DNA of 64,000 nucleotides from Candidatus Krumholzibacteriia bacterium. GTDB taxonomy: Bacteria; Krumholzibacteriota; Krumholzibacteriia; Krumholzibacteriales; Krumholzibacteriaceae. Below, piece after piece: positions 623-21,348 of the stretch. Made by a program: the position numbers and the translations under genes. Each line of letters opens with the position of its first letter. Within the stretch, counting starts at the first letter, position 1. The stretch is taken from NCBI GenBank assembly GCA_963836185.1, contig CAWIIQ010000003.1, forward strand, positions 416,001-480,000, read 5' to 3'. Below the pieces are notes generated by a model. It was not told where the DNA came from. It was given only the letters and a program-made list of their open reading frames with translations, and did not search any database.

Positions 623-698
<76 letters not shown>

Positions 699-918
699 CT
701 TGATTCCCGCAATAACAGCCCATCACATCTAACAAAGAAATATTCTTGACTCACTCTGTAACACTATGTCAATATTTTGTCAGCGGGACAGCGCTCCTGT
801 ATTTATCATCTATTGAGGCAACCGCCGCGCCAGCAGGCGATCGCAGCTGTAGCTGTACGTCAGGCAGGAAGAGAAATCGACCCAGGGCAGGGTATAACCC
901 AGTAATGAGGAGGGCAGG

Positions 919-2544
919 ATGAAAAAGTACTATAAATTGTTGACGGCGCTTATGCTCTGCTGTGCGGCGGTCACGACCGCAGCCGCACAGGAGTACGATC
1001 TGGTCATCAACAACGGCCGGGTCATGGACCCGGAAACGAAGTACGACGCAGTAGCCAACGTTGGTATCAAAGACGGCCGGATTGCCATCATCACTAAAGA
1101 CAAGATCAAAGGTAAGGAGACCATCGACGCCAAGGGGCTGGTGGTGGCGCCGGGATTTATCGATGGGCACCAACATTGTATTGAGCCCTATCAATACCGG
1201 TTGATGCTACGCGACGGTCGTACGACGCTTCTGGACACAGAGATCGGCGCTCACGGTCCAAAGCTCGACGAGTGGTACAAACGACGAGAAGGAAAAGCAC
1301 CGGTGAATTACGGTGTGGCGGTGGCTCACGAATTTGCGCGGGCGGAGGTCTTGGACGGCTTTACCGATTGGAAATATCTCTACACTCCCGATGCTGGCCA
1401 ATCCCGTCTCACAAAGGAGGGTTGGTCAAAGACCCGGCCGACCCTGGAGCAGGGAAACCAGATCCTTTCCCTGATTGACGAAGGCTTACAGCAGGGAGGA
1501 CTTGGCATTGGCTCTACCGTTGGCTACATGCGTGAAGGGGTCTCGACTCGCGAGATATTCGAACTGCAAAAGCTGGGAGGGCTATACGGCCGTTTTATCG
1601 CCATGCATTTCCGCTATACGCCCGGTGATGATATCACCGAAGTCAACGGTATCCAGGAGATGCTCGCAAATGCGGCGGCATTAGGGACGCCGGCCATCGC
1701 CTCCCATTTCAATAATCCGGGATACAATATGGTGCATGAGCTTTTGGTGAGGATGCGTGAGAAAGGCTATAACGTCTGGGGTGAGATCTATCCATACGCC
1801 GCAGGTTCTACGGCTTTGAATGCCGTTTTTCTCGAACCCGAAGTCTGGGTAAAGGCCCTGGGCAACAAATACGAAGAGACGATTCAAGATGTTGCCACCG
1901 GCGAATTCTACACCCAGGAATCGCGTGAGGAGATGCTCAAAAAGGAACCCACGCGTCTCGTGCTTGTCTACAAGATCCCGGAATCGGCTATTGTTGATTG
2001 GCTCAAAATGCCCGGCGTGGCCATTGGCAGTGACGGCATGCCGATGATCCCCGACGACAACCTGACCTGGGACACTCCCTTCGAAGATCTGCCCAATACC
2101 CACCCGCGGACTACCGGGTCTTTTGGCACAGTGCTTCGCCTTGCCAGGGAAAACAATATTCCGCTGATGCAGGCCGTATCCATGACCAGTTACAATTATG
2201 CGAAGCCTCTGGGTGAAATGGGCCTCAAGGCCATGCAGGAACGCGGCCGGATGCAGGAAGGCATGGTCGCTGATATCACCATATTCGATCCTGAAACGGT
2301 ACGGGATAATTCGACCTATGCAAAAGGGACGCTGCCGTCCACAGGGATTTTGCATGTGATTGTTAACGGGACCCTTGTCATGAAAGACCAGAAGCCTTTG
2401 AAAGGAGTGAATCCGGGTCAGCCGATCCGCTTCGAGCGGGTCGAGAGCAAGTTCGAACCGCTCACCATAGAGAGCTGGACCCAGACCTACTATGCCTCCC
2501 CGATCGATTTCGGCGGTGGGGTTCCTTGTTGTGACTTTCATTGA
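919..2544 (+). CDS. Exported metal-dependent amidohydrolase (N-acyl-D-amino acid / D-glutamate deacylase-like)
   Basis: Signal peptide; DLVINNGRVMDPE, VAPGFIDGHQH (HxH), IGSDG, HPR, RGRMQEGMVADITIFDP. Confidence 0.85.
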   Translation: MKKYYKLLTALMLCCAAVTTAAAQEYDLVINNGRVMDPETKYDAVANVGIKDGRIAIITKDKIKGKETIDAKGLVVAPGFIDGHQHCIEPYQYRLMLRDGRTTLLDTEIGAHGPKLDEWYKRREGKAPVNYGVAVAHEFARAEVLDGFTDWKYLYTPDAGQSRLTKEGWSKTRPTLEQGNQILSLIDEGLQQGGLGIGSTVGYMREGVSTREIFELQKLGGLYGRFIAMHFRYTPGDDITEVNGIQEMLANAAALGTPAIASHFNNPGYNMVHELLVRMREKGYNVWGEIYPYAAGSTALNAVFLEPEVWVKALGNKYEETIQDVATGEFYTQESREEMLKKEPTRLVLVYKIPESAIVDWLKMPGVAIGSDGMPMIPDDNLTWDTPFEDLPNTHPRTTGSFGTVLRLARENNIPLMQAVSMTSYNYAKPLGEMGLKAMQERGRMQEGMVADITIFDPETVRDNSTYAKGTLPSTGILHVIVNGTLVMKDQKPLKGVNPGQPIRFERVESKFEPLTIESWTQTYYASPIDFGGGVPCCDFH

Positions 2545-2554
2545 TGAGCATGTA

Positions 2555-2781
2555 TTTTAATGTGAATACGCCACCGGCTAAAACTGGCGGGTTTAGATTA
2601 CGGCTAAAAGCTGATTGTTTCCCTCTCCCAAAACTGGGAGAGGGCTGGGGTGAGGGTTCATGAAACAAGCTCAATACTAACCCCCTCATCCCTACCTTCT
2701 CCCATCAAGGGGAGAAGGAGTAAAAGAAAATATGCCGCCTAAAGGCGTGGGATTTCAAATCCCCTATTTAAGACATTAAAA
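2555..2781. mobile_element. Non-autonomous MITE-like element with IS200/IS605-type terminal hairpins and an internal REP-like pair
   Basis: 9-bp inverted ends TTTTAATGT (2555-2563) / ACATTAAAA (2773-2781); subterminal hairpins CCACCGGCTAAAACTGGCGG and CGCCTAAAGGCG; no ORF. Confidence 0.55.
2621..2718. repeat. Pair of REP-like palindromes in inverted arrangement
   Basis: CCCTCTCCCA-AAAC-TGGGAGAGGG (2621-2644) and CCTTCTCCC-ATCAAG-GGGAGAAGG (2695-2718), with complementary GGGGTGAGGG / CCCTCATCCC arms between them. Confidence 0.8.
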
Positions 2782-2808
2782 ATAAACGAGGACAAGGGAG
2801 ACTTAATT

Positions 2809-4272
2809 ATGAAAGACTCAGAGCTTAATTCTTCTACAACGGACCAAAACAAGAACACCGATGCAGTAACGGATGGAGTAACGAGTGAAGTGGTAGATGT
2901 GGGCCGCAGAAAATTCATGGCGACAAGCGCATTGTTGGGTGCAGCAGGCACAATCGGTTTAGGGCTTAATTCAACAGCGGTGCAGGCAGAAAGCGGCGGC
3001 TTGAATAAGGGTTGCATGTCTGGCTTTAAACCTCTTGAGGTCGACAGCCCGATGGCTAGGTGGAAAAAGCCTCAGTCAGTTGAGTTTGTCGAGAAGGCGA
3101 CTAAAAACTACAGTTTCCCAAACTGGCAGTCGGGCAACGATGACTCGATCTATTACAACATGAACCTGCCTGAGTTCTTTAAGTGTTCCTACATCGCGCC
3201 GCCGGACGGCTTCTCGCAGCTTGAACGGGCTATTAATTCGGGGCTTTTGGATCTCACTTTTACTGCCCGTGACCGTAAGACCACGCCGCCGCTAAAGGAA
3301 TATCTTGTCGGTAAGCGTCAAGTTCAGGCCATGTTGATGGCTCACAAGGGCAAGGTTGTGTTCGAGACTTATCCTGGCATGAATCCCACTGGTATTCACG
3401 TGTGGATGTCCGCCTCCAAAACAACAGTAGGCTTGCTGATCTCCATGCTAGCCGATGAAGGCAAGATCGATTTAAACAAACCTATTCCAACCTTCGTGCC
3501 TGAACTCAGAGGTTCCTCATGGGAGCAAGCTACGGTAGCGAATGTTATGAATATGGCATCGGGGCTCGATATCGAAGAGACCATCGCTAACTTGCTAAAC
3601 CCCGAGTCGTGGATTGCCAAGTGGTTCACCGCCGCATTCGAAAATAAGGGCGATTTTCGTGAGATTGCCAAAAACGCGAAGCCGCTGGCAAATGAGCCTG
3701 CTGGCTCACATTTCAGATACTCTGGCGCGAATACACAAGCATTAGTATTGGCAACGGAATTTGTTACGGGCATACGGTGGCAGGAGTACTTCAACCAAAA
3801 GGTGTGGTCAAAGATCGGTGCTAAGGGCCCATTTATTACTGGCCTCGCACCGGATGGAACACCGCTGGGAGCAGGTCTGCACAACTCCACTCCCGAAGAT
3901 TTTCTGCGGTATGCAATGATCTATACCCCAAGCTGGGATCGGGTGGCAAAGGAGCAGATCATTTCTGCCAAACTTCTTAAAAGTATTCAGTCGCTTGGTA
4001 ATCCTGCAGCCTATAAGAACTCCACTGAAGAGGGGTATGGCACCGACTGGTTTGGAGAAACCCCAGAGCGAAACACCGCGCAATGGGACCATGCCTTTCC
4101 TGACGGAGCCATGTTTAAACATGGCAACATGGGACAAGGTATTTATGTTGATCCAAAGCGCGATTTCTGCGGCGTTTATTTTGGGCTGGCACCGAACCCA
4201 GACGAGATATCGGGCATCGATCACTCGCCTGGTTATCTTCGTGCTGCTGCGAAACGACTTGCCGGTAAGTAA
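2809..4272 (+). CDS. Tat-exported serine hydrolase, beta-lactamase class C / NylB-like fold
   Basis: GRRKFM twin-arginine signal; WMSASK (SxxK), FRYSG, HGNMGQ motifs. Confidence 0.85.
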   Translation: MKDSELNSSTTDQNKNTDAVTDGVTSEVVDVGRRKFMATSALLGAAGTIGLGLNSTAVQAESGGLNKGCMSGFKPLEVDSPMARWKKPQSVEFVEKATKNYSFPNWQSGNDDSIYYNMNLPEFFKCSYIAPPDGFSQLERAINSGLLDLTFTARDRKTTPPLKEYLVGKRQVQAMLMAHKGKVVFETYPGMNPTGIHVWMSASKTTVGLLISMLADEGKIDLNKPIPTFVPELRGSSWEQATVANVMNMASGLDIEETIANLLNPESWIAKWFTAAFENKGDFREIAKNAKPLANEPAGSHFRYSGANTQALVLATEFVTGIRWQEYFNQKVWSKIGAKGPFITGLAPDGTPLGAGLHNSTPEDFLRYAMIYTPSWDRVAKEQIISAKLLKSIQSLGNPAAYKNSTEEGYGTDWFGETPERNTAQWDHAFPDGAMFKHGNMGQGIYVDPKRDFCGVYFGLAPNPDEISGIDHSPGYLRAAAKRLAGK

Positions 4273-4335
4273 CTGATGAAAAGGATAGTCAGGCACTCAA
4301 ATATGATAGACGCAATTATTCAAAGGAGAAGACCC

Positions 4336-5334
4336 ATGAAACGAAACATAGCACTATTTTTCATTGCAATGGTCTCGTTATTTGTTGCAGTTCAACCTGC
4401 ACTTGCTCAGGAATATAATGTTCAAGATATTTCTCAAAAGATTGAGAAACTTTCGGAGGGGCTGGTTGGCCGCATTGGTGTGGCAGCACAGGAAATTGGC
4501 TCGGGAGTAAATATCACCATAAACGGAGATGAATCGTTTGTGATGGCGAGCACCTATAAAGTGGCGATTGCAGTCGCCTTATTAGACCGTGTCGATAAAG
4601 GCGAGCTTCAACTTACTGATTTAATTGATGTACCATTAGAAGAGATGGTGGTAGGTCCCAATCCGATCGCCATGAACTTTGTGCATCCAGGTGTAAAGTT
4701 GTCTATAGCCAATTTGATTGAACCTATGATAACGGAAAGCGACAATACCGCAACGGATGTCTGCCTAAAAGTAGTGGGAGGTCCGGAAGTGGTAAATAAA
4801 ATGTTGCGCAGCATTGGGATAAAAGACCTAAGAGTTGACCGGTCTACTGCCGAAATTTTAAGAGACTTTTATGGTTTAACTGATAAAGCCTACGTATCCG
4901 TAGCTGCAGCGGCCTATGCCAAAGACCCAACGCTTGCAGCAAGACAATCTGATCGAAACCTTGATTTCGAAAAGGACCCTCGTGACCACTCCACACCAAA
5001 AGCTATGTTGGAATTACTTCTGGCTGTCGATAGCGGAAAAATTTTAAGTGAGAAAAGCCGCGAATTCCTGCTTGCTACAATGTCGCGCACACGTACAGGT
5101 GGCGGAAGGTTAAAAGGACTTCTGCCAAAAGGTACACCGGTTGGTCACAAAACAGGAACTATTGGCGGTGTGGCTAATGATGTGGGTTACGTTACGCTGC
5201 CGGATGGCCGACGTTTTGCGATTGTGGTATTCACAAAAAGCAGTACGACCTCTGAAGCTGATCGGGATAGAGCCATTGCCGAAGTTACCCGAGCTTTATA
5301 CGACTTTTATTATTTAACGGCACAAGACAAATAA
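4336..5334 (+). CDS. Class A beta-lactamase-like protein with an atypical omega loop
   Basis: Signal peptide; MASTYK, SDN and KTGT motifs; AAGGAG RBS supports the start at 4336. Confidence 0.88.
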   Translation: MKRNIALFFIAMVSLFVAVQPALAQEYNVQDISQKIEKLSEGLVGRIGVAAQEIGSGVNITINGDESFVMASTYKVAIAVALLDRVDKGELQLTDLIDVPLEEMVVGPNPIAMNFVHPGVKLSIANLIEPMITESDNTATDVCLKVVGGPEVVNKMLRSIGIKDLRVDRSTAEILRDFYGLTDKAYVSVAAAAYAKDPTLAARQSDRNLDFEKDPRDHSTPKAMLELLLAVDSGKILSEKSREFLLATMSRTRTGGGRLKGLLPKGTPVGHKTGTIGGVANDVGYVTLPDGRRFAIVVFTKSSTTSEADRDRAIAEVTRALYDFYYLTAQDK

Positions 5335-5393
5335 CCTTTGTCATGCCTAAAAAGCTTTGATTGATAAATGTTCTTTTATACCTGAAAGTAGAA

Positions 5394-6782
5394 ATGAAAA
5401 ATAGACCATTATGTCTATTTTGCTTCCTGGTGGTTTGTTTATTGGCAACAACTATCCACGCACAGGAAGTAGATTCATTAAAAAATGAAATCGAGCATCT
5501 TAAACAAAAACTGAATAAAATTGATGAGTTGGAATTGCGCTTAGCAGAACTTGAGGGGGACAGTGTTGCAGTTCAACAAAATCTTTCACCGAAATTTGCT
5601 GCAGATAGCACAAAAAAAGGACTTGAGCAAATTCCAAAGCAGGATTTACGTGATCAGAATATTGTGCCGCTTTCAGGCAGTGATCTTGTTGCCTCCGAGT
5701 TTCTAGGCTCATGGCCTATGTTCGGCACAATTTTTAGAATGAAAATCGGTGGTAAAGTCAAAACCGATTTTCTTTATGATATACATGGAAGTAATGATCG
5801 GACTCAATTTTTATTGTCGACTATACCAGTAGAAGGAACATTGGAATACGGAAATAGCGGGTATTTCAATGCTTTTGCACGGGAAACCAGGTTTAATATT
5901 GATATGCGAAGGGTGATTCCAGATGCTGTCCCTTTAAGAATTTTTATAGAAGGTGATTTCTGGACTTCAGGTAGTCAATTCAGACTACGCCATGCTTATA
6001 TCACCGTGGGTAATTTTACTATCGGACAAACCTGGACTACCATTTCTTTTCTTGAAACAATAACAATTTACATTGATTTTGCTGCAGGTGATGCCTTGTA
6101 TGGTGGGCGGACTGCTCAAATACGTTATGATCATAGTATAAATGATAATTGGAAATTCGCAGTCGGTTTAGAAATGCTCGACTATATGGGAATCGAAAAC
6201 ACTTACAGGCTGGATGGAGAAGCCAGTTTGGGATTACCTCTTTTGGCAGGGCGAATGGGCTATAACTGGTCCACCGGATTAGCACTGCTTGGAGCTCAGG
6301 TTGCTCAATTACGATGGGATGGTGGGGGTACCGGTCCTTATGACACAGCATTACAGGCATCTGTTGTTTTTGGTGGACGACAATACATTGGGAAAAATGA
6401 CTTCTTGACCTGGAATATCTCTTACGGTAAGGGATCAGGTGAAAACATTATGGCTTTTGCAGGTAGTCAGGCTAATGCGGTATTAAACAATCAGGGCAAT
6501 CTGGAAACTATGCCCGCATTATCATTTGTCGTTGGTTATATGCATCGATGGAATGATCAATATTCTTCAAATCTTGGTTATGCTTATGGATGGTTGGAAA
6601 CGCCGGAATCCAGGGATCCGTGGGCACTGGCACAGGGCGGAATAGGCCATGTCAATCTTTTCTATAGGCTCTCTAATGAATTGTCTACAGGTATAGAATA
6701 TATGTGGGGTACACAGAAGACAACAAATGATGCTTTGGGAAGAGCGAGCAGGGTTCAGTGTATGGTTGCATTTGAATTTTGA
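5394..6782 (+). CDS. DcaP-family outer-membrane porin
   Basis: Signal peptide, N-terminal coiled coil, FIEGDF, FRLRHAY, GQTWT, terminal aromatic FEF. Confidence 0.8.
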   Translation: MKNRPLCLFCFLVVCLLATTIHAQEVDSLKNEIEHLKQKLNKIDELELRLAELEGDSVAVQQNLSPKFAADSTKKGLEQIPKQDLRDQNIVPLSGSDLVASEFLGSWPMFGTIFRMKIGGKVKTDFLYDIHGSNDRTQFLLSTIPVEGTLEYGNSGYFNAFARETRFNIDMRRVIPDAVPLRIFIEGDFWTSGSQFRLRHAYITVGNFTIGQTWTTISFLETITIYIDFAAGDALYGGRTAQIRYDHSINDNWKFAVGLEMLDYMGIENTYRLDGEASLGLPLLAGRMGYNWSTGLALLGAQVAQLRWDGGGTGPYDTALQASVVFGGRQYIGKNDFLTWNISYGKGSGENIMAFAGSQANAVLNNQGNLETMPALSFVVGYMHRWNDQYSSNLGYAYGWLETPESRDPWALAQGGIGHVNLFYRLSNELSTGIEYMWGTQKTTNDALGRASRVQCMVAFEF

Positions 6783-6798
6783 AATAATGAGTATCTAA

Positions 6799-7530
6799 AT
6801 GAAATCAAAATATATTGCTCCGATAATTTTATTATTTCTACTATCAGGCTCGGGTCTAGCTCAGCAATTCAACACCGATAATTACCTGGCTATGCCGCAC
6901 GGAACCACTACATTTGTTTTGACCACAGGAGAACGAAACGCGACATTTATCAACTCATTCGCTTTAATTCAGAATTGGGAGTTTTTTGCCCAGGCAAACC
7001 TATATTGGGAAAATAGAGAACTGGAGCTTTCGCAGCACTTTACAACAACTGTTTACTTTAAATATATGTTTTACGAAAATTCAGATAAAACAGGTGGATT
7101 TGCTGCATTCTTGGGTTATGGGGAATCACCAGGATATCACGATCAAACACAATTCCTTGATCGTCATACAAACTTATGGACTGCAGTCCCAATAACAATT
7201 CCTTTTTTTGAAAACACGTTCTCATGGGACATTATGCTCGGAGGTATGGTTGATTTTGATTATGGTAATAATAAAAAGACAGCTTGGGGATTTACATATA
7301 CTACCAGACTAGCAATTTATAAGGTAATCCCACAGAGTGCCATTGTAGGTGAGTACTATGGCACTGCTGGTGAGCTTTATTCAGAGCCGGAATATAAGAT
7401 CGGTATTCGCTGGGAACCAAATAATACTGTTGTTCCCGCGATTAGTTATGGTTCAGCAATTAATGGAATGCGGGCAGCCGGTTTTGAGATTGGTATAGTG
7501 ATATATTCACCTCAATTTTTAAAATTATAA
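6799..7530 (+). CDS. Exported hypothetical protein, probable small beta-barrel
   Basis: Signal peptide, aromatic/Gly-rich alternating strands, co-oriented 16 bp after the porin. Confidence 0.6.
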   Translation: MKSKYIAPIILLFLLSGSGLAQQFNTDNYLAMPHGTTTFVLTTGERNATFINSFALIQNWEFFAQANLYWENRELELSQHFTTTVYFKYMFYENSDKTGGFAAFLGYGESPGYHDQTQFLDRHTNLWTAVPITIPFFENTFSWDIMLGGMVDFDYGNNKKTAWGFTYTTRLAIYKVIPQSAIVGEYYGTAGELYSEPEYKIGIRWEPNNTVVPAISYGSAINGMRAAGFEIGIVIYSPQFLKL

Positions 7531-7596
7531 TTTGAAAGAAGGATTTTACTTATCACTGATTAACCATTTATTAATAAACGGAGGGCAAATAAAACG

Positions 7597-8020
7597 TGTA
7601 CAGTGATAGTATTGACCTGACACCTGTCTCTGCCCGGGTGTCTGTTTAGGCCGCGTTCACCTCCTTCTTCTTCCCATCTTTTGATTTTTTCTTCAAGCCT
7701 TTTATAAAGGCTTTTTCCGGAGTGCTTCCTAGCATTCCGCGTCCCTGATGAGGACGCTTTGTGTTGTGGTGATCAAGTTCTCCGGTGTAGTGGGTCTCGA
7801 TGTGCCGATCTCTAAACTCGGGACTGAACCGCTCGAGAAGCCGTATCTGATCGTCGCTGAGCTTTATCTTACGTTTTCTCGTGTGTTCCTCGAGCCGAAG
7901 CAGCCTCTGATGACGGAGCAACAGGTTGTGGCGGTTCCAGACACCCCTGACGCCTCCAGAGCTTACCTGCACGCCTCGAAGTGCCAGCTCCTGGGCCACA
8001 CGAAGTCATCCATGGGAGGG
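7597..8020 (-). pseudogene. IS481-family transposase relic with its right end
   Basis: PSHG*LRVAQELALRGVQVSSGGVRGVW...RHIET joined directly to HNTKRPHQG, so the DDE core is deleted; end sequence TGTCAGGTCAATACTATCACTGTACA on the minus strand. Confidence 0.8.
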
Positions 8021-8165
8021 GCTCTTGCCCCCGGTATTTGGACAACCGCTACTCGCATTTATGCTAGACTTTCGGGGTCTACTATAGTGCAAGTATTGTA
8101 AGGCGGGCGGGAGAGACCGACATCGGTGCGTGGCGACATTTCGGGTCCGGAGTCCACAAAAACAC

Positions 8166-8216
8166 TTGACATAATAGGCTATTAATGTATAGTATGTCCA
8201 CGAAACATGGACATAC
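8166..8216 (+). promoter_or_regulatory. abiE promoter with inverted-repeat operator
   Basis: TTGACA-N16-TATAGT; perfect IR GTATGTCCA-N7-TGGACATAC (8192-8216); imperfect IR at 8169-8188. Confidence 0.7.
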
Positions 8217-8226
8217 ATGCTAATGT

Positions 8227-9753: not shown

Positions 9754-9806
9754 CCGGTAGAGATGCATGTTGCGGGTGTTCGGAAAAGTGGGATTGTGCC
9801 TTCTGT

Positions 9807-12800: not shown

Positions 12801-15800
12801 GCGCAACTCGAGCTGGGCGGAGGCCCAGGCGATATCCATCGCCCGATCGATCGCATGGACATCGCTGTATTTACTCATCAGCTCCAGGACATGCTGGCGG
12901 TCTTCGCCGGCAGCGATGACCAGGGAAATCTGGATGCGCTTGCCCGGACCTATAGTCACGCTGCGCCGCAGGCTGAGGATCGGGTCGAGGACAAAACCCT
13001 GGTTGTTACCGGGTTCCTCGAATACACCCATAGGGTTCGCGAGTGTCCGTCCGATTCCGATGAACTGTCGCCGGTCGGTCTCGAACTGCAGGGCTTCATC
13101 CCCGGCATCGTTATGGGTAAAGCGGTGTGCGACATAGATGGGCGGATCGTCCTTGCTGCGAGGCCGGCGGTATGCAAGGAGCGCTTCATGTTCCGGCACT
13201 GCCTCGGTCTGGATGAACAGTTTGTTGAAGGCCGGATGCTGCCTGTCCGCGTTATGCGGCGCCATCGAGAGTTCAACGTAGCTCGTCAGATCGAGGCGGC
13301 GGGTGCGAACGGTCCGATTGAATAGAGTGATCCGTCGGATTTCTACATCGTCTTCCGGCGAGACGATGATCTCTGTTTCGGTCTGAATGCCGTTATCCTC
13401 TCGCCGGAAGACGGCACGGTCAAGCGCGAAGTCGGCGGAATACGCTTCGACCGTTCCGCCGGTCGGATGATACGCGTTGGACCATAACAGGTCCTGATCG
13501 GCTTCACGTATGTAACAGAAGGTTCCCCACGGATCCCTGGTGCGATCCGACCGCCAGCGGGTGATCTCAAAGTCGCCCCAGCGGCTGTATCCGCTGCCGG
13601 CGTTTGTGAGCATCAGACAATAATGGCCGTTACTGAGCAGCTGTGTCTTGGGTGTGGCGGTATGGGGCGTGTCGAACTTGCTTATTGATGGCGCCACCTC
13701 GCCGACGCTCATTACCGACGGCATACTGTCCCGCGTGGGGATGTGGTGCAGAGAAGGAAAGAGGGGGATGCGTTCGTGGAGCAATGGCTCGACCGCGCGT
13801 GCGCGCGGGTCGGCATGGAACCGGCGCTGGATGGGATTCCCGTGAATGAAGTTTGTCAGAGACAGGAACCCCATGCCCTGATGATGGGCCATGAAGGCCC
13901 GAACGATCACGCCGCGCTCGCTCTCGCGTCGCGGCCGCCGGCCGAAGTCCAGCGATTCATAGTAGCCGTAATCCTGAAGAAGCCCCGAGCTGGCCAATCG
14001 TTTCAGATTCTGCACTGTCTCTCTCGGCGCCGCGTTCACCGCAAGCAGGGTGGCATAAGGCGCTACGACTACCTCTTCCCTGGCGCTGCGCTTCAGCCCG
14101 AGCTCGGGTACGCCGAAGGCCTTGTACTGGTAGACCTTATTGACGTCCAGATCTCCAAAAGCAGATTCCGAGATCCCCCACGGCACGCGGCGCTTGCGGC
14201 CATACGCGATGTGGATCGCAACGGTTTCACTGGTCGCTTTATCCAGGAGTGAGTTTCCGTACGAGCGCTGGAAGATCAACGGCATCATATATTCGAACAT
14301 GCTCCCCGCCCAGCTCAGAAGCGCCCGGTGCCGGCCGATAGAGCCGTAGGGCCGGCTCATGGAAAACCAGTGCTCGATCGGGACATCCCCCCTGGCAATC
14401 GCGATGAAACTTCCAAGCCGCGCTTCACTCGCCAGGAGATCGTAATAGGATTTATCCAGGCGGCCTTCAGAGACGTTGTAGCCGATCGAAAAAAGCCGGC
14501 GTCTGGTGTCGTACAGGAAGCGCATGTTGATCGATTCGGATAACTCGCGTCCGTCCAGTATGAACTGCCTTCCCAGCGCAAGCATTTCTCCAGCCAGCCA
14601 GGTTGACTCCGCGAAGGACAGCAGAAGGCGGTCGATCCATTCGAAGAGAGGGGCCGCGTCTGCGGGAGCCTCTTCCCGGATCATTCTGAATATATGAATG
14701 CAGGCGACGTTTTCGTTGGCGAGATCGAGAAGCGAAGGCGCGCGACGCAGATCGCTCCTGCATGCGAGCAGCAGATCCCGGCCAAGCGGCGCGATCTCCT
14801 CTTCCGTCTTTTCAGCGAGGATCTCGATCCAGGCGAGGTAGCGATCCGCGATCCCGAGCCAGGCCGCTGCTTGACCCTGCATCTGCCTCGCCCAGAAGAC
14901 CGCACTCGCTTCAGCATCAGTGGACGCACGTACCTCATCGGCAATGGCCCATACGCGGCCTTCCACCTGACGCAGCAGGCGTATGGCATCGGCGATCCGC
15001 TCCGGCGGACTTTTCAACGTGTGCAGCAGTTCATCGAGGCCCCGGGCATCGAACCGGGACAGGGTTTCCTCTTCGACTGCCTCTTTCAGGATCTCCGCGG
15101 TGTCCCGCAGGCCCTCAAAGGCTTTCGAATCCAGAACATGCGCCTGGATCAACTCGTCGAGCCCCTGCTCCAGGGCCCACAGGCAACCAAGGAGGTTTCC
15201 ACTGTCCACCATGGATACGTATCGGGGCTCAAGAGGGGCCAGAGTCTTAATATCGTACCAGTTCAGCAGATGGCCTTCATAGCGCTCCAGCTTGCCGAGC
15301 GTCTCCGCGGTGCGCGTCAGATCTTCGATGACCTGGTCCACCGTCACATATCCGAAATCATGCGCGCCGAGCGCGCTGAGCATCCAGAAACCGATATTGG
15401 TAGGGCTGGTGCGCATCGACAGCTGGTCCGTATGGGAGACCTGGTAATTGTCGGGGGGGAGCCACGAGCTCTCATCATTGACAAACTCCGAGAAATAGCT
15501 CCAGGTTCGCCTGGCGACTCTTCTGAGGAACCGGATATCGCTTTCAGGAAGGTGGGAGCGCCGGGGGCTCACAATCGGTCGACCGGCCAGGAGCCATCCG
15601 ATCAGAGGAGATACGAACCACAACACGAGCCATGGAGCGGCTGCCGGAAGGCTCGAAGGAGCCCAGCGCTGCACCGCCCATCCCGCTGTCACACTGAAGA
15701 TGCTCGACAAACCCAGTGAAATGACGAATGTCCGGACCTTCCCGGGAGCGTTCCAATGCATCGCCTGTGCGGAGGTCCACTCGAGCAACTTCCGATGTGT

Positions 15801-18800
15801 GATGAAGCGGCGATAACAGACCCGCGAAAAGGCATCCAGAGTCAGCCACGCCTGGTGCGGAAGGAGCGCGGCCTCGACGATCGCCCGCAGAAGGTCGTGA
15901 ATCGATTTCGAGAATGAAAAGCCCTTCAGCCATCGACCGGTGGTTGCCCATGTAAATGGCTGCACCAGGGGGTGGAAGAGCAGCTGTATGGCGACGACGC
16001 AGGAAGATATCAACCCCAACCGGGAGGAGATCAGCCAGGAGGCCATGAGCAGGCCCAGGCTGGTCATGGGCACCAGGCTTCGGCGCAGGTTATCGAAGAT
16101 CTTCCAGCGGTCGAACCCGGAAAGCGGATTTTGTTCCCGCCGTCCCGCAGGTCGGGGGACACGCGGGAAGATCCAGTCCGCGATCTGCCAGTCCCCACGG
16201 ATCCACCGGTGCTGGCGGCTACTGTAACTCAGGTAATCCTGCGGGAATTGATCATAAAGCTCGATATCGCTGGCCAGGCCCACTCGCACGTGAGCACCTT
16301 CGATCAGATCGTGGCTCAGCAGGCATTCTTCAGGAAACCTTCCGGAAAGCACCCTGCTGAAGGCGCGCACATCGTAGATGCCCTTGCCATGGTATGACCC
16401 TTCGCCGGTGAGATCCTGATTTACATCGGAAACGGCTCTCGAATAAGGGTCGATTCCGACAGGGTCCGAGAATAGCCGGCTGAAAAGCGAGGCGTTCGTG
16501 CTAGGCAGGGAGGGGCTGACGCGGGGTTGGATTATAGAATAGGAGCCGGCGCTGATATTGCCTTCGGCATCAAAGCGCGGCTGGTTGAGAGGGTGTGCCA
16601 GCGTCTCGATCATCCTGCGCGCGGTGTCGTGAGGCAGCTGTGTATCGCTGTCGAGTGTGATGACGAATCTTACGTCGTATAGATGATCCGGATCACCGAC
16701 GTATACCAGCCTGCCGGCATCCTCGGGCCGCGTTCCATCGATAAGACGATTGAGTTCTTCCAGCTTCCCGCGCTTGCGCTCCCAGCCGATGAATTTCTGT
16801 TCGGACTCGCTCCATTTTCGCTCCCGGTGGAAGAGGAAGAAACGCTCATCACCATACCGAAGATTGAGGGCCTCGATACCTTCGGTCACCGCTCGGATCA
16901 GGAGCTCGTCATCCTCACCATGTTCCTGATCCGAATCCGTATGATCCGAGTAGAGGCCGAAGAGCAGATTGGACTCTTTATTGGCCAGGTACCGGATCTC
17001 AAGATTTTCCGCCGCGGCCCTGATTGTATCCGTATTCACCAGCATCATAGGTACGACGACGAGCGTGCGAAATTCATCGGGGATCCCCGAATCCTCGAAA
17101 TCCATCTTTGGAAGTGTGCGCGGCGGAAGCAGCCGCGTGATGACGTAGTTTACGATCTCGAGCGAGAGCTGGCTGGCTGGGATCGACAAGAGGAGGGCTA
17201 TCAGAAGCCGTCTCCCCGTGGTCTGTCCACTCATGCCGGACAGGACAATCAGTGTGATGAATGCGGTGGAGAAAATACCGACCCCGAGAAAATACACTGC
17301 GGAATGATGGCGGTAGACCCAGTGCAGGAGGCGGAAACGAAGCTTTTCTCGGCATCCTGCGAGCCTCGCCAGCTCCTGTCTTCCTTCATCGATCAGATAC
17401 GTTCCGACATGGGCCCAACGTTCATCCGCTGCCGGTTCACGGGCGGAGCGTGCCGCCAGATCGATGGCCTGCCGGGCAACCTGGTCCTCAGGCTGGCCGG
17501 ACCCGCGGGCGAGTTCTTCGATCATCCGGCGATACCGGTCGCGTGTGTCGAAATCCATCCGGGGATAGATACCCGAAGGATCCAGGCGTAGCAGCCGTTC
17601 AACCCGGCTGAGCTTTTCGAATATTTTTCTCCAGTCCAGAAGGGCGAGTTGCCGCAGGCTGGTGAACGCGTTCCCGATCGATATCTGATCTTTCATCTGA
17701 CGGGTGTGCTCGCGAGGGTTGAGATCGCCGAGAGGTTTCCGGAACGCCCGCTCGAGCCATCCCTGGACCGGTGCCAGCGCTGCTTCCTGATCGTAGAGGT
17801 TCTCGATCAGTTGAGAAGCGAAATAAGTGCTCGGGCTCGGCTGTATTTCGGCGAGTTCCGCGAGAATCGAGAAGAGTTGATTGGGATCTCGCCGGGTGGC
17901 GATAATCAGCCGGTTCGCCCAGAAATCGGCGATTTCACGCTCTCGCAACTCTGTCAGTGCATTTTCCGCGAGGTTCGAGATGCTCTCTATCAACACCGCG
18001 CGCAACATCTGCGGGACGGCCCAGAGTTCTCCGATCGACAGCGTGCTGATGGACTGATATGCCTCGATAAACGCGAGGATGTTCTCCTGGTCCAGACGAA
18101 GGTCCGTGCGGGAGACGAGATCCCTCGCGAGGCCGTAGATGCGAGGCAAGCCGCGGCAGGGCTCGTCGGCGAGTGACGGCAGATCAAGGTAATAGTGCCT
18201 GGGAAGGTTCATCTGGATCTCGCGGACATTGCTCTCGACGATGTACTCGTTGTCCAGGAGCCATTCGGCAGTCGGAGGCGTGCTCTGTCCAAGCCGACTC
18301 GCTTCGGCGAGATCCGTGCATGCCCGGTGTATCCATCGTCTGGTCTGTTCGAGCCGCTTGAGCAGTCCGATGTCCGGACGGGTATCCGGGTCCACACGTT
18401 GTTCCCCGGCGAGACGCTCCGCGTACTCCGGGATCTGCACAGCCGAAAGCGGATTTCCGAGGTTCTCCATCTCGCCAACGAGACTCTCTCGCTTCGGATG
18501 CAGTATGAATATGGCAGGAGGGATCTCGCCGCTCTCCCGCAGAATCGCCACCGGGGAATGCAGCTTTTCGACAGGCGTCCGGAGAATCAGAACGGTCTCC
18601 CCGGAAACCAGCCAGCGCGTGTGATCCTCGATCAGTCTTCGTTCCAGGCCGAACCTCGATCGACGTATCCATATTGCGCTGAAGAGGATTCCCGCTAATC
18701 CCCCCGCAAGGCCCTGAACCAGGGTGGAAGGGACTCCGCTCAGAACAGGCGCCTGCCAATCGAGGATTATAGAAATAACTCCGGCGAGTACCCCGAACAG

Positions 18801-18983
18801 GATGAAAGCAACGGCCGCCCAGAAAATCTTACGCCATGGGAAGGGGTCCCGCGTATGTATATCTCCATTCGTAGTCTTGCTTACAAGTGCAGCGCGGCGG
18901 AACCCTTTCCTCTGCAGCTTCTTGAAGACTGCGCGGGCTTCATCCCGTTTCGCGAAGTAAGCTATGAGAATGCCTGTTTCCAT
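9807..18983 (-). CDS. ndvB: Cyclic beta-1,2-glucan synthase (Cgs/NdvB/ChvB: GT84, cyclising glucoamylase-like domain, GH94)
   Basis: 3058 aa; EWLLDN, GWERKRGK, LSHDLIEG, RWIRGDWQ, LPPDNYQ, YYDLLASEARL, GFRDQLQD, GDWNDGMN, GVRENGGQYTH. Confidence 0.95.
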   Translation of the reverse strand: METGILIAYFAKRDEARAVFKKLQRKGFRRAALVSKTTNGDIHTRDPFPWRKIFWAAVAFILFGVLAGVISIILDWQAPVLSGVPSTLVQGLAGGLAGILFSAIWIRRSRFGLERRLIEDHTRWLVSGETVLILRTPVEKLHSPVAILRESGEIPPAIFILHPKRESLVGEMENLGNPLSAVQIPEYAERLAGEQRVDPDTRPDIGLLKRLEQTRRWIHRACTDLAEASRLGQSTPPTAEWLLDNEYIVESNVREIQMNLPRHYYLDLPSLADEPCRGLPRIYGLARDLVSRTDLRLDQENILAFIEAYQSISTLSIGELWAVPQMLRAVLIESISNLAENALTELREREIADFWANRLIIATRRDPNQLFSILAELAEIQPSPSTYFASQLIENLYDQEAALAPVQGWLERAFRKPLGDLNPREHTRQMKDQISIGNAFTSLRQLALLDWRKIFEKLSRVERLLRLDPSGIYPRMDFDTRDRYRRMIEELARGSGQPEDQVARQAIDLAARSAREPAADERWAHVGTYLIDEGRQELARLAGCREKLRFRLLHWVYRHHSAVYFLGVGIFSTAFITLIVLSGMSGQTTGRRLLIALLLSIPASQLSLEIVNYVITRLLPPRTLPKMDFEDSGIPDEFRTLVVVPMMLVNTDTIRAAAENLEIRYLANKESNLLFGLYSDHTDSDQEHGEDDELLIRAVTEGIEALNLRYGDERFFLFHRERKWSESEQKFIGWERKRGKLEELNRLIDGTRPEDAGRLVYVGDPDHLYDVRFVITLDSDTQLPHDTARRMIETLAHPLNQPRFDAEGNISAGSYSIIQPRVSPSLPSTNASLFSRLFSDPVGIDPYSRAVSDVNQDLTGEGSYHGKGIYDVRAFSRVLSGRFPEECLLSHDLIEGAHVRVGLASDIELYDQFPQDYLSYSSRQHRWIRGDWQIADWIFPRVPRPAGRREQNPLSGFDRWKIFDNLRRSLVPMTSLGLLMASWLISSRLGLISSCVVAIQLLFHPLVQPFTWATTGRWLKGFSFSKSIHDLLRAIVEAALLPHQAWLTLDAFSRVCYRRFITHRKLLEWTSAQAMHWNAPGKVRTFVISLGLSSIFSVTAGWAVQRWAPSSLPAAAPWLVLWFVSPLIGWLLAGRPIVSPRRSHLPESDIRFLRRVARRTWSYFSEFVNDESSWLPPDNYQVSHTDQLSMRTSPTNIGFWMLSALGAHDFGYVTVDQVIEDLTRTAETLGKLERYEGHLLNWYDIKTLAPLEPRYVSMVDSGNLLGCLWALEQGLDELIQAHVLDSKAFEGLRDTAEILKEAVEEETLSRFDARGLDELLHTLKSPPERIADAIRLLRQVEGRVWAIADEVRASTDAEASAVFWARQMQGQAAAWLGIADRYLAWIEILAEKTEEEIAPLGRDLLLACRSDLRRAPSLLDLANENVACIHIFRMIREEAPADAAPLFEWIDRLLLSFAESTWLAGEMLALGRQFILDGRELSESINMRFLYDTRRRLFSIGYNVSEGRLDKSYYDLLASEARLGSFIAIARGDVPIEHWFSMSRPYGSIGRHRALLSWAGSMFEYMMPLIFQRSYGNSLLDKATSETVAIHIAYGRKRRVPWGISESAFGDLDVNKVYQYKAFGVPELGLKRSAREEVVVAPYATLLAVNAAPRETVQNLKRLASSGLLQDYGYYESLDFGRRPRRESERGVIVRAFMAHHQGMGFLSLTNFIHGNPIQRRFHADPRARAVEPLLHERIPLFPSLHHIPTRDSMPSVMSVGEVAPSISKFDTPHTATPKTQLLSNGHYCLMLTNAGSGYSRWGDFEITRWRSDRTRDPWGTFCYIREADQDLLWSNAYHPTGGTVEAYSADFALDRAVFRREDNGIQTETEIIVSPEDDVEIRRITLFNRTVRTRRLDLTSYVELSMAPHNADRQHPAFNKLFIQTEAVPEHEALLAYRRPRSKDDPPIYVAHRFTHNDAGDEALQFETDRRQFIGIGRTLANPMGVFEEPGNNQGFVLDPILSLRRSVTIGPGKRIQISLVIAAGEDRQHVLELMSKYSDVHAIDRAMDIAWASAQLELRLLRIQPDEARRFQQLASHLLFPNPHLRSPAERIEKNRKGQAGLWPYGISGDMPIVLIVISQERDITLVRQIFQAHALWQMRGLTADLVILNEEASGYEQPLRERIEGLIHSHSMHTGVDRPGGIYLRSADLIPEEDLMLLRAAAAVVLVAARGTLPQQLGMTMETPELPELIARKSAPREPSPSLPFMELSYFNSLGGFTPDGREYAIYLGPGINTPAPWINIIANPTFGTSVSETGSGVTWYGNSQRNRLTQWSNDPVMDPPSEAIYIRDEETGDCWTPTPLPIRDEPAYRARHGAGYTVFEHNSNGIEQELTVFVPVDEDGGEPIKLQRLLLRNDSSRQRVLSITYYVEWTLGENREDSQMHVTTSWDDEARALLARNRYHPDYGDRVAFAAMTPPAESYSGDRTSFLGRNRPMSEPAAMEQTGLSKRTGAGFDPCAALRITVELAPGERSEITCMLGQAGSVEEAHTLVRTYRENTAFDNALNRTTAWWDDLLGTIEVHTPELAADFLINRWLLYQSLTCRIWGRSAFYQPSGAFGFRDQLQDIMAFPLAHPGLAREHILLAASRQFEEGDVQHWWHPPGGSGIRSRISDDLLWLPYVVAHYIRTTGDMDILHEVVPFLNAPALEDGQHDFFSTPEVSFKRGTLFEHCQHSVTRGLTFGPNGLPLIGTGDWNDGMNLVGAGGRGESVWLGWFIADVLKGMAELSDLLDRPDLSRIYQKERKTLIQRVERAAWDGKWYLRAIFDDGTLLGSSANDEAMIDSLPQSWAWLSGAADANRADTALDSAWEHLVREDEGLVLLLAPPFDRSEPSPGYIKGYPPGVRENGGQYTHAALWLAMAMARRGDGTRASKILHMLNPIEHARDPETVWRYGVEPYVVSADVYRLPGRIGNGGWSWYTGSAALMYRTWVEEVLGLKVQGDQMQVDPVIPGWWKGFSMSYRHGEAVYEIQVENPEGCERGVSRVEMDGQHVPDGVITLHRDLIKHRILVRMGKPPPE

Positions 18984-19300
18984 TCTCTATCCTTTTGTCA
19001 CACTGGTTTTAGCCTCGAGGTATTGCGCTGGATTTCACAGGGCGGGAATCTTCAATGCAACTTCGGAGCGTCAATCAGGCTGCGTCTCTGATCAAGAGTA
19101 CATGGGTGTATGAGATTTCACTGTAGCCCCGACACGAGAGTAAGTCCATACTTATAATCGGTTGTAGGAAGCGGTATCATCGGTCGTTCGGCGACAGCCT
19201 TCATCGATCTATCCCTGTGTAAGCCCAAACGCAGGATCGGCACCCCGACTCAGTCTTTTCCTTCCCTACCCGGGTCCATATTCCCCGCTCCATTCAAAGC

Positions 19301-19345
19301 AAAGAAAAACCCGGCCCTGAAGTCTCGGATCACTCCAGGGCCGGG
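19301..19345 (-). terminator. Rho-independent terminator of the subtilase gene
   Basis: Stem CCCGGCCCTG / CAGGGCCGGG followed on the minus strand by TTTTTCTTT. Confidence 0.85.
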
Positions 19346-19381
19346 CACCCTTTAAGTACTTTTTCTCAAAAGAGACACGTA

Positions 19382-21037
19382 CTACCGTAGCAGAACCATC
19401 TTTCGTGTCTTTTCGAACTCCCCGGCGGAGAGACGGTAAAAGTAAACGCCGCTGGCCATCGGGCGGCCATCGGTGCCTCGTCCCTCCCAGTTCACCGTGT
19501 GATATCCCGCGGACCTTTGGCCGTTTACCAGGACCTCGACCAGCCGACCGGCAGCGTCGTAGATGCCGAGTGTTACATGTGACGGCGCTGTGAGGCTGAA
19601 CGTGATTTCGGTGACCGGGTTGAACGGATTGGGGAAGTTCTGGTCCAGAGCGGACCGGCGGGGCAGATGGTTCCGTGGATAATCGGCAGTTTCGATCGTG
19701 GCCGATACTGCCGCAAACGCATTCACGATACCACCTGTTGCGGTTAAACCGCTTAGAGCCTGGTGTGGCTCCGCGTTATCGAGTATTAAATCCCGGAGTA
19801 CGACCGGAGGCAGCGTCGGATCGACTGACAGGAGCAGAGCTGCCACACCGCTGACGTGAGCTGTCGCTATCGATGATCCGGAGAACAATTCCCAGCCTCC
19901 GGGGAACGTTGAGAGGATCTCGTCACCAGGCGCCGCGATATGAACTGTCATAGGGCCCCAGTTTGAGCCGTCCTCAACACCCCAATAGCATAGATCGCCA
20001 GTCTGGTCGATCGCAGTTACCGATATCAGGTTGGGTAGAGAATAACAGGCAGGGTAGTACGGGGTGACATCCGTGTCGACATTATCATTTCCAGCCGAAG
20101 CAATGAAAAGGATATCCGGGTGTGCTGCAATCGCGGCTTCTTCGGTTGCAGAGAAGCCGTACCCTCCAAACGACGCATTGATGATACGAGCGCCATTATC
20201 AGATGCATATTGAATTCCCTCGATCTCATGGGAGACAGAACCGCCATCATTTCCGATGAACTTTAATCCCATCAGATTTACACCCCAGTTGATTCCTGCG
20301 GTGCCTGCAGAGTTGTTTCCCTGGGCTCCGATGACACCTGCGACATGGGTTCCGTGATCATCCCGGTAGTCTCCCGGAAACAATTGACTATTGTCATTGT
20401 AAAAATTCCAACCGGCAATATCGTCGACGTATCCATTTAAGTCATCGTCTATTCCGTTGCCGGGTATCTCCCCGGGATTGACCCACATATTGGGATTAAG
20501 ATCTTGATGTGTGACGTCGATACCGCCGTCGAGAATTCCTACGATCACGCTTGGATCGCCGGTCGTCAGGTCCCAGGCTTCCGGTGCGTCGATATCGATA
20601 TCGGAATTATTGTCAAGTGCCCACTGGCTGACGAAATAAGGATCGTCGGGGACCCCTGCCGGCTGGCGGAGATAGTCGGGTTCGACGTAGTCGACTGCCG
20701 GATTGTGGTCCCACGCGTCCAAAAATGACTCGACATCCGACACGGGAACAACAGCTGCGATGACCGGTACACAGGTAAAGACGCGCTTCACCCTGCCACC
20801 CTGCTGCTCGATCGCGAGCACGTCCTGCTGGCCGGGAGCGGAATGGTACCCGATAAGTACTTTTCCCCCGAGATCACGCACGGTCGCCAGGCGCATCTCC
20901 CGGGCGGACCCGTCCTTCCCGGGAGGTTCAGCGTGACCTGCGGCAGGCCACTGGGATAACAGAAGTACAATCACGGATATAAAAATCCAAGTAATGGCAA
21001 ATGGTGTGTTCTTGAAAAACGAAAGATTAAATAACAT
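19382..21037 (-). CDS. Secreted S8 subtilase with C-terminal FlgD-Ig / T9SS-CTD-like domain
   Basis: ILDGG, HGTHVAG, SAGND, SGSSIA (variant of GTSMA); tail QNFPNPFNP...SGVYFYRL...KMVLLR. Confidence 0.9.
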   Translation of the reverse strand: MLFNLSFFKNTPFAITWIFISVIVLLLSQWPAAGHAEPPGKDGSAREMRLATVRDLGGKVLIGYHSAPGQQDVLAIEQQGGRVKRVFTCVPVIAAVVPVSDVESFLDAWDHNPAVDYVEPDYLRQPAGVPDDPYFVSQWALDNNSDIDIDAPEAWDLTTGDPSVIVGILDGGIDVTHQDLNPNMWVNPGEIPGNGIDDDLNGYVDDIAGWNFYNDNSQLFPGDYRDDHGTHVAGVIGAQGNNSAGTAGINWGVNLMGLKFIGNDGGSVSHEIEGIQYASDNGARIINASFGGYGFSATEEAAIAAHPDILFIASAGNDNVDTDVTPYYPACYSLPNLISVTAIDQTGDLCYWGVEDGSNWGPMTVHIAAPGDEILSTFPGGWELFSGSSIATAHVSGVAALLLSVDPTLPPVVLRDLILDNAEPHQALSGLTATGGIVNAFAAVSATIETADYPRNHLPRRSALDQNFPNPFNPVTEITFSLTAPSHVTLGIYDAAGRLVEVLVNGQRSAGYHTVNWEGRGTDGRPMASGVYFYRLSAGEFEKTRKMVLLR

Positions 21038-21169
21038 TCGAACTCCCCCAGATCCGAAGCAAAGTATCCCGCCGAGTATAACCCGCGCGGCCCCAGTGAT
21101 CCTTGCGATTCAAGCAGATATAAATTATAACATATCCGAATACCTCTCCGGTTAAATTATTGGAATTTA

Positions 21170-21192
21170 GATTCCCTGGCGGCGTCCCACTT
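21170..21192 (+). repeat. att-like duplicate of the tRNA-Lys 3' end
   Basis: GATTCCCTGGCGGCGTCCCACTT versus GATTCCCTGGCGGCGTACCACTT at 679-701. Confidence 0.88.
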
Positions 21193-21348
21193 ACACGTAT
21201 TTTCGATATCCCATCCCCGCAAGCTCCAAGGGTCGAATACGCTCTTGAATTACCCTCGGCAGGTGGAGTATCCTCGACTACGGACGATATATCAAAAAGT
21301 TATCAATTCCAGCCGCAGTGGCGGTGTGCGTTCTCCAACGGGGGAAGT

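Follow-up and report, generated by a model that had tools for sequence, protein, structure and literature searches.

A decayed, accreted island as the probable origin of a 20.5-kb region at a tRNA-Lys gene in a Krumholzibacteriia genome

The window, a stretch of 64,000 nucleotides from a Candidatus Krumholzibacteriia bacterium, contains a 20.5-kb region bounded by a tRNA-Lys(CTT) gene and a distal copy of its 3' end. We consider this region to be best explained, with a probability of about 0.65, as a decayed and accreted island that goes back to old insertions of P4-type-integrase elements at the tRNA-Lys, and that resembles a CIME except that its right att is not intact. The features on which the argument draws are:

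51..488, + strand: ssb, a conserved backbone gene upstream (PF00436) that precedes tRNA-Lys in many relatives
623..698, + strand: tRNA-Lys(CTT), the integration target
676..701, + strand: tRNA 3' end that the distal copy repeats, from the T-loop to CCA and 3 bp beyond
767..783, + strand: probable doubled arm-type motif, made of two 6-mers with a period of 11 bp and lying +88 from where the repeat begins
817..864, + strand: 3' half of an attC of the type of this genome's own IntI integron (85% over 48 bp), hairpin lost
919..2544, + strand: amidohydrolase family protein (NF006560, above cut-off)
2809..4272, + strand: beta-lactamase-fold serine hydrolase (PF00144)
4276..5334, + strand: class A beta-lactamase-like protein (NF033103, 236.8 bits against a cut-off of 200; SxxK, SDN and KTG motifs present)
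5361..6782, + strand: DcaP-like outer-membrane protein (PF19577), GC 0.41
6799..7530, + strand: hypothetical exported protein without a Pfam match, GC 0.38
7646..7999, - strand: internally deleted remnant of an IS481-family transposase (71% over 75 aa to an ISAs19-family transposase)
8227..9753, + strand: AbiEi/AbiEii pair, a type IV toxin-antitoxin system (matches to PF13338 and PF08843 are weak or partial)
9807..18983, - strand: ndvB/cgs-like cyclic beta-1,2-glucan synthase homologue, 3058 aa (Pfam GH94 domains; E=0 to PDB 8rf0/8rf9)
19382..21037, - strand: S8 subtilase with a FlgD-type C-terminal tail (PF13860), in the relatives' integrase position
21167..21192, + strand: right att copy, truncated to tRNA positions 54-76 and 3 further bp (24/26), lacking the anticodon loop and arm
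21349..22991, + strand: lipoprotein and Vps62-like gene pair, accessory, outside the repeat

The repeat of the tRNA 3' end reported by an earlier, sequence-only reading of this DNA is real. The 23-mer at 679-701 recurs in the same orientation at 21170-21192, 20.5 kb downstream and identical at 22/23 positions, and far from being scattered over unrelated sites it has only these two copies in the whole 3.5-Mb genome, even allowing up to 4 mismatches. When extended, the match covers 24/26 positions beginning at tRNA position 54, the mismatches in the right copy falling in the T-loop and at the discriminator base; an Rfam search of the window found no RNA other than the tRNA. The interpretation as a scar of site-specific integration is supported, and the relatives do not all carry the same genes contiguously.

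In the relatives the tRNA-Lys(CTT) is a hotspot for elements with P4-type (Arm-DNA-bind_3) tyrosine integrases, whose att copies start at the anticodon loop and whose integrase lies just inside the right end. In the congener G006 the cognate integrase adjoins a tRNA-Lys(CTT) copy that spans positions 26-74 and is followed by the window's backbone genes, and L087 has a 58%-identical integrase beside such a copy. Strong homologues of the integrase occur in 7/60 relatives, 4 of them beside anticodon-loop fragments of tRNA-Lys or tRNA-Val, and each of the 3/3 integrase-adjacent tRNA-Lys(CTT) copies has the anticodon-loop segment. Partial copies start at or before position 36 in 19/23 cases (17/21 without the contig-end copies L028 and L037), a count skewed by the preference of the blastn search for long copies; it leaves out L043 (noise, E 0.45) as well as L021 and L022 (full tRNA-Arg matches), and a scan of 61 genomes with an 18-mer pattern and 2 mismatches was too noisy for counting copies. 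Short att copies in relatives are demonstrably eroded longer ones: the L080 copy starts at 51 and has the same downstream flank as the L087 copy starting at 32, and the copy at L035:8533 starts at 42 and keeps its arm. Of the two att sites originally proposed for our region, then, the tRNA-end repeat stands, but the right copy is only the part of the lineage's att from the T-loop to the 3' end. The 45 bp preceding the right copy gave no significant alignment with tRNA positions 26-56 (P=0.24), so the case for truncation comes from the relatives only. The relatives also stack 2–4 kb att-flanked modules without an integrase, often single FlgD-tailed or kinase genes, and in G015 att copies are found at several widely separated loci of a single contig. 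The tRNA-Leu of the present genome likewise has integrase-less modules.

At the left junction the tRNA is intact, and the motif at 767-783, which has the expected offset, probably marks the left end of an element. The same doubled motif is found at offsets 84-91, behind the T-loop, in 13/35 relatives' junctions; its chance of occurrence in an 8-bp window is about 8e-4, a figure to be read knowing that the pattern was written after viewing the sequences. A PWM built from the arm sites of 11 relatives did not pick out the motif, its best score near the junction being at another position, and 135 sites in the window score equally high.

The absence of a recombinase gene between the repeats, likewise reported earlier, was confirmed for the entire window, which has no Phage_integrase, Resolvase or Recombinase match (Pfam profiles searched: PF00589, PF00239, PF07508 and PF13356) and yields no remnant in tblastn searches with the genome's four tyrosine recombinases (best E 0.20) or a congener's P4-type integrase (best E 0.48). 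Pfam and NCBIfam annotation of the main island ORFs gave neither a relaxase nor a T4SS. The genome-wide search for integrases that had been proposed recovered from the assembly XerC, XerD and two integron-type integrases, the cognate (Arm-DNA-bind_3) family being represented by nothing more than an N-terminal fragment of 88 aa; this stub abuts a repeat at the tRNA-Val of the same genome, in a comparable state of decay. Of the two fates envisaged for the island, stranding is favored because no integrase is present, and mobilisation in trans is not, since the right copy is truncated and armless and the assembly holds no helper. We conclude that the 20.5-kb region can probably no longer excise. 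An empty site with the tRNA followed directly by the lipoprotein gene at 21349 had been predicted; none joining both flanks appeared among the relatives' fetched tRNA-Lys loci or 8 metagenome matches.

The cargo includes the 9-kb ndvB-like gene. By its domains and structure-database match its product is a Cgs/NdvB homologue and putative cyclic beta-1,2-glucan synthase, a membrane protein of ~3000 aa that carries both glucoamylase-like and GH94 domains and is homologous to the solved Cgs. Pairwise identities indicate that this gene has spread laterally across genera and families of the order: fourfold-site identity of ndvB across genera and families is 68-73%, against 27-37% for core genes, and the gene is found in 8/36 genomes of the family. 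It lies behind an arm-bearing tRNA-Lys in G014, on one contig with a cognate integrase in G013, and 40 bp behind an intact tRNA in L081. In congeners, ndvB, a lipase gene and a DUF4126 gene follow in the same order with no repeat, and here the lipase and DUF4126 genes lie outside the repeat; the idea that the 20.5 kb is a single unit is accordingly unsupported. Because G001 and G003 have ndvB upstream of the lipase gene with no repeat between, the repeat need not end the ndvB element. Conversely, fourfold-site identity to congeners is 69-77% in ndvB but falls to 49-50% in the lipase gene, pointing to a boundary of acquired DNA near the repeat, a contrast weakened within the genus by the similarly high 57-69% of the backbone gene ssb.

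In the block between the tRNA and ndvB, the hydrolase/porin genes are compositionally foreign and begin at the half attC site. The amidohydrolase has up to 91% identical homologues in Desulfobacterota, Acidobacteriota, Planctomycetota and others, and in these 70 foreign loci it is adjoined by the class A beta-lactamase-like gene in 19/70 and the serine hydrolase in 6/70, with the DcaP-like gene present in 13/70 and the exported protein in 6/70. The mosaic composition previously described, with AT-rich genes (about 4300-7560) beside a GC-rich ndvB, is confirmed: the genes at 4276-7530 have GC contents of 0.44, 0.41 and 0.38, whereas ndvB has 0.60 and the genome about 0.57. In tetranucleotide deviation, the three 3-kb bins of 700-9700 rank at percentiles 97.7, 99.5 and 97.7 among 1138 genome bins. 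There is no att copy between this block and ndvB. The abiEii gene is split into two frames, possibly by an assembly indel, with frame breaks seen in 7/45 loci of this assembly tested against congeners; if intact, the AbiE pair may slow the loss of the block. We rejected the notion that these genes are integron cassettes in their donors, as 0/70 foreign amidohydrolase loci have an attC of the model used.

Under our preferred reading, the history would have begun with the integration of an ndvB-carrying element at the anticodon loop. Either a deletion or the incoming subtilase gene would next have cost this element its integrase, its right arm and the 5' half of its right att, of which 23-26 bp would remain. 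Finally, the 9-kb 5' block, with the hydrolase/porin cluster, the IS481 remnant and AbiE, would have joined beside the tRNA, either by insertion into the first element or as a second element of which the left arm survives and the right end was deleted. Decay by deletion and tandem accretion are both described in published accounts (PMC5704250, PMC7563491, bioRxiv 10.1101/2020.12.28.424599), which this reading matches.

A broader reading, which we offer only as a doubtful possibility, is that the lineage runs tRNA-anchored cassette arrays, in which a rare P4-type integrase would stack and reshuffle non-autonomous 2-4 kb modules at tRNA-Lys, -Leu and -Val, with cargo exchanged with host integrons, and that the window is an old fused stack. 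The modules meant are of one or two genes (for FlgD-tailed secreted proteins, Ser/Thr kinases or lipoproteins) with conserved att cores and arm ends.

It is unlikely that the 20.5 kb was never one element and that the right copy merely ends a small integrase-less cassette carrying the subtilase gene (about 19.2-21.2 kb), or is a passenger scar between ndvB and the lipase gene. The single-gene modules of the relatives and the scattered copies of G015 agree with such an origin, as does the corresponding interval in congeners, which lacks the subtilase, the repeat and the lipoprotein pair; against it, there is no left att or arm motif between the subtilase and ndvB, the sequence in front of the right copy does not show the conserved right end of the modules, and that copy is oriented and placed as expected of a terminal attR derived from the tRNA 20.5 kb away. 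The host-type FlgD tail of the subtilase, noted at the outset, was confirmed by PF13860 and by 70-83% DNA similarity to several loci in the same genome; among 60 relatives the subtilase has no close homologue (E<=1e-90). Its start codon is 133 bp from the repeat; in G006 and L087 the corresponding distance of the integrase is 208-213 bp. Beyond the repeat, the Vps62-like gene occurs in 2/40 relatives, each time with the lipoprotein; the short flanks retrieved with them contain no fragment of tRNA-Lys(CTT).

Integrases that target the T-loop are a known class, and it is conceivable, though improbable, that the two copies are the complete att pair of such an enzyme; an incoming or unassembled element could then mobilise the island in trans. 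The match does begin at the T-loop (position 54), three more copies start at 50-53 (L038, L080, L083) and the 23-bp block is still 96% identical; yet the T-loop of the right copy is itself mismatched, no tyrosine integrase lies beside the relatives' short copies, and L080 is explained by erosion. Tyrosine integrases tend to require identity in the 7-bp exchange segment (PMC10111431). A helper could sit in the unassembled part of the genome (the assembly is 92.5% complete), but with the cognate family represented in the assembly solely by the 88-residue fragment, trans-mobilisation is improbable. None of 12 sequencing runs contained half of the sequence words. Short contigs from such runs (four at 88% likeness, one at 98%) gave no att-to-att joint, a weak test in that no stretch spanned both att copies, contigs lose rare variants and uncovered bins are uninformative. 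Lastly, although the repeat is short and the assembly has indel errors, a chance match or artefact is already effectively refuted by its uniqueness and orientation downstream of the tRNA, by the shuffle test, in which 0/100 shuffles gave 2 matches, by similar copies in many relatives and by a separate 365-bp contig from run X1 (possibly the source population) that bridges the right repeat (21041-21405) with zero differences, the right copy thus being probably no assembly artefact.

A literature search gave no description of this locus. Tandemly accreted CIMEs, for example at the tRNA-Lys(CTT) of Streptococcus agalactiae, are alike in having cargo that lacks an integrase and is flanked by a tRNA 3' end and a copy of it, in arising by deletion with the most decayed parts farthest from the target gene, and in that intact elements of relatives use the same site (PMC7563491, PMC5704250). 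The window differs in lineage and integrase family and in its right att, which CIMEs keep in usable form and which here lacks the anticodon-loop segment and arm, rendering cis-mobilisation doubtful. The tRNA-anchored islands and tycheposons of Prochlorococcus similarly have partial tRNAs and fragmented integrases from older insertions, newer elements that displace older DNA from the tRNA, and most island DNA outside active elements (bioRxiv 10.1101/2020.12.28.424599); the window has no tycheposon replication or packaging genes. The G006 integrase shares the architecture (Arm-DNA-bind_3, Phage_int_M, Phage_integrase) of P4/IntS-like islands, and the relatives share the doubled arm motifs of the HE-PICI attP, which have an 11-bp period and stand at a constant distance to either side of the att core (PMC10111431, PMC2951348); in contrast, the window lacks the integrase and right arm, and the relatives' integrase lies at the tRNA-distal end. 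Such scars are common and already described, and a decayed island in itself carries little weight. Its use is as a worked example of gene gain at one tRNA hotspot in an uncultured sediment lineage, with the likely integrase family named; if a shared integrase does still move integrase-less modules, this would be a testable integron-like gene-capture system on tRNA genes.

A further parallel is with decayed integron cassette DNA, as a half attC of the host-integron type precedes the first cargo gene, in this case as one half-site without an array. It is the sole nhmmer match with E<0.01 outside the host integron array (E 2.8e-4); it has no attC-like fold and is missed by the structure model, a covariance model of six attC sites that reports nothing significant in the window (best E 0.1), and no complete attC hairpin follows the first cargo gene. 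The hydrolase/porin cluster probably once passed through an integron. One cassette of the host integron has a gene with a near-identical signal peptide.

The 20.5 kb between tRNA-Lys(CTT) and the distal copy of its 3' end are layered, and the repeat is a genuine att scar enclosing genes that were acquired laterally:

623-698: tRNA-Lys(CTT), directly after ssb (ARAGORN)
679-701: 3' end of the tRNA, first copy of the 23-base repeat
between the copies, in order: amidohydrolase; PF00144 serine hydrolase; class A beta-lactamase-like protein (4276-5334); DcaP-like porin; hypothetical protein; IS481 remnant; AbiEi/AbiEii pair; ndvB; S8 subtilase with FlgD tail
21170-21192: second copy, one mismatch; the match reaches back to tRNA position 54 (24/26)

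The best reading of the region is an ordinary island in decay, a known kind of thing. A P4-type element with ndvB would have integrated at the anticodon loop and then, by deletion or gene insertion, lost the integrase along with most of the right att; a second block would have been added adjacent to the tRNA, and the locus would now be fixed. We give this whole reading odds of about two in three (0.65); both the succession of these steps and the loss of mobility are inferred. The island works like a cis-mobilizable element (CIME), defined in PMC7563491 and PMC5704250 as a decayed element that has kept its att sites and lost its recombination and transfer genes; the island is no full member of that class, as it keeps no usable right att. 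In Prochlorococcus islands, partial tRNAs together with fragments of integrases have been described as traces of older insertions (bioRxiv 10.1101/2020.12.28.424599).

No recombinase was found between the two copies, as the sequence-only reading had held, nor was a remnant of one. A PF00589 profile search for integrases elsewhere in the genome, a check which that reading had proposed, recovered four proteins from an assembly that is 92.5% complete, in whose missing part a helper may exist. Two are integron-type integrases, each adjoining a repeat array, and the others we take, by sequence and context, to be XerD and XerC (names taken from the neighbouring genes). No serine recombinase was found in the genome search, and the only match to Arm-DNA-bind_3 there is an N-terminal stub of 88 residues, situated by a tRNA-Val repeat at another place on the contig.

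Comparison shows that tRNA-Lys is a hotspot, which family the integrase belongs to and that ndvB has spread laterally. A DNA search found partial tRNA-Lys copies in many of 40 relatives. In a collection of 23 partial copies, skewed to long ones and with two at contig ends, 19 start at or before position 36. The congener G006 encodes an integrase of 396 aa (Arm-DNA-bind_3, Phage_int_M and Phage_integrase) that begins 177 bp within a copy of tRNA positions 26-74; homologues of the window genes at 33161, 50510, 51919 and 55976 come after it. Strong homologues of this integrase occur in 7 of 60 relatives, and four of them adjoin an anticodon-loop fragment of tRNA-Lys(CTT), -Lys(TTT) or -Val. At 13 of 35 junctions in relatives, a 6-mer occurs doubled, with an 11-bp period, 84-91 bp past the T-loop; in G006 the doubled 6-mer is 164 bp upstream. 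We infer that these motifs are integrase arm sites. Their geometry is similar to the doubled attP motif in PMC10111431, and arm-type binding is described in PMC2951348.

The gene ndvB is present in 8 of 36 family genomes. Its identity at fourfold-degenerate sites is 68-73% against other genera and another family, whereas core genes of the xerC-xerD region reach 27-37%; against congeners the values are 69-77% and 36-41%. It lies 40 bp past an intact tRNA-Lys (L081), behind an arm-bearing tRNA-Lys (G014), on one contig with the integrase (G013) and between tRNA-His and ssb (G009). The congeners G001 and G003 carry ndvB, other genes, and then the lipase, DUF4126 and 33-40 kb genes in the order of the window; their ndvB-to-lipase interval is without the subtilase, the repeat and the lipoprotein pair. 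From the lipase onward, fourfold identity to these congeners is only 48-59%, so that the acquired DNA stops close to the repeat; ssb, with 57-69%, keeps this contrast from being clean, and the lipoprotein pair beyond the repeat is accessory too. An empty site with the tRNA directly before the 21349 lipoprotein, as the sequence-only reading had predicted, was found neither in the relatives' tRNA-Lys loci that were retrieved nor in 8 metagenome matches. The lipoprotein at 21996-22991 has a Vps62-like domain and is paired with the upstream one in 2 of 40 relatives. Further on, 40920-42128 (minus strand) encodes a homologue of prokaryotic pentameric ligand-gated ion channels (PF02931, PF02932).

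In tetranucleotide usage the first 9 kb stand at the 97.7-99.5th percentile of deviation among 1138 bins, whereas ndvB and the downstream DNA are not deviant, which agrees with the mosaic cargo proposed earlier. Among the tRNA-Lys loci retrieved from relatives, none carries a counterpart of this 5' block. Its amidohydrolase shows as much as 91% identity to proteins of several phyla and is accompanied by at least one of the other four genes in 30 of 70 such loci. At its start the block has half an attC (the 3' part) of the type of this genome's IntI integron, its hairpin lost. Since frame breaks occur at 7 of 45 tested loci (some double-counted on opposite strands), the abiEii split may be an assembly error. 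The class A protein has a long insertion in the omega-loop region; the usual deacylation glutamate is not evident where it would be expected, so this may not be an efficient beta-lactamase. Palindromic repeat-like sequence lies between the amidohydrolase and serine hydrolase genes (2600-2720).

At the left end the tRNA is intact, and a match to the doubled motif lies at offset 88 (767-783); its chance within an 8-bp window is ~8e-4, for a pattern drawn up only after inspecting the data and with a PWM that did not recover this match. At the right copy there is no arm motif upstream or downstream. The subtilase starts 133 bp from the right repeat as against 208-213 bp for the integrases in G006 and the metagenome contig L087, leaving no space for the usual right end. 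That contig carries an integrase element, an att, a 3.8-kb integrase-less module and a second att. It is conceivable, though we think it unlikely, that the repeat of the window belongs to a small passenger module. Still less probable is that the copies form a complete att pair of the T-loop class that is moved in trans. The right copy is without the anticodon loop, and its sequence departs from that of the tRNA in the T-loop and at the discriminator base. T-loop-specific integrases exist; none was seen next to the short copies. Erosion is demonstrable in short copies of relatives (L080 compared with L087; L035:8533); in the window itself, direct alignment for an eroded anticodon half gave no significant match. 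A chance match or artefact is scarcely credible: two matches of the 23-mer were never obtained with shuffled sequence, the 3.5-Mb genome (6 contigs) holds no third copy at up to 4 mismatches, and a 365-bp contig from sequencing run X1, which may be the source population, spans the right copy with zero differences.

The more interesting lead lies outside the island, in integrase-less modules with conserved ends: in G015 they are scattered, in G018 and L087 they form stacks at tRNA-Lys, and this genome has a stack at tRNA-Leu(CAA). In the last case (contig C1, 1603983-1608946), the tRNA is followed by two modules of 2.2 and 2.6 kb ending in tRNA copies of 57-58 bp (100% and 95% identical), whose 130-bp upstream flanks are clearly homologous, with direct repeats; these are the cleanest candidate non-autonomous att cassettes in the genome. 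In G015 and G018 (L033-L036, L020), a tRNA-Lys half with arm motif is repeatedly flanked by Ser/Thr kinase-TPR and FlgD-tailed genes; one contig of G015 has it at four places far apart, and no intact tRNA-Lys(CTT) was found there; in G018 a 140-bp junction occurs twice, identical, 2.6 kb apart. L082, where roughly 200 bp span tRNA-Lys, an arm motif and then a 3' fragment of tRNA-Val, is a gene-less mini-element uniting two target specificities of one integrase family.

The 6.6-kb tRNA-Val(TAC) island of this genome (C3, 545057-551792; L055/L169), with a 63-bp repeat, an 88-aa P4-type integrase stub and an ORF that we take to be IS481-like, is integrase decay caught midway. Partial or degenerate copies also lie behind tRNA-Pro(TGG) (4.3 kb; C3, 340963-345421) and tmRNA (1 kb; C3, 488202-489553), and a lone degenerate tRNA-Val copy at C1, 1445824-1445910. 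The two integron-like arrays (L012, C1, 2063394-2073128; L011, C1, 1091773-1106500) differ in repeat family, and one L012 cassette encodes a serine hydrolase whose signal peptide is the same as that of the class A protein in the window, together with an amidohydrolase fragment.
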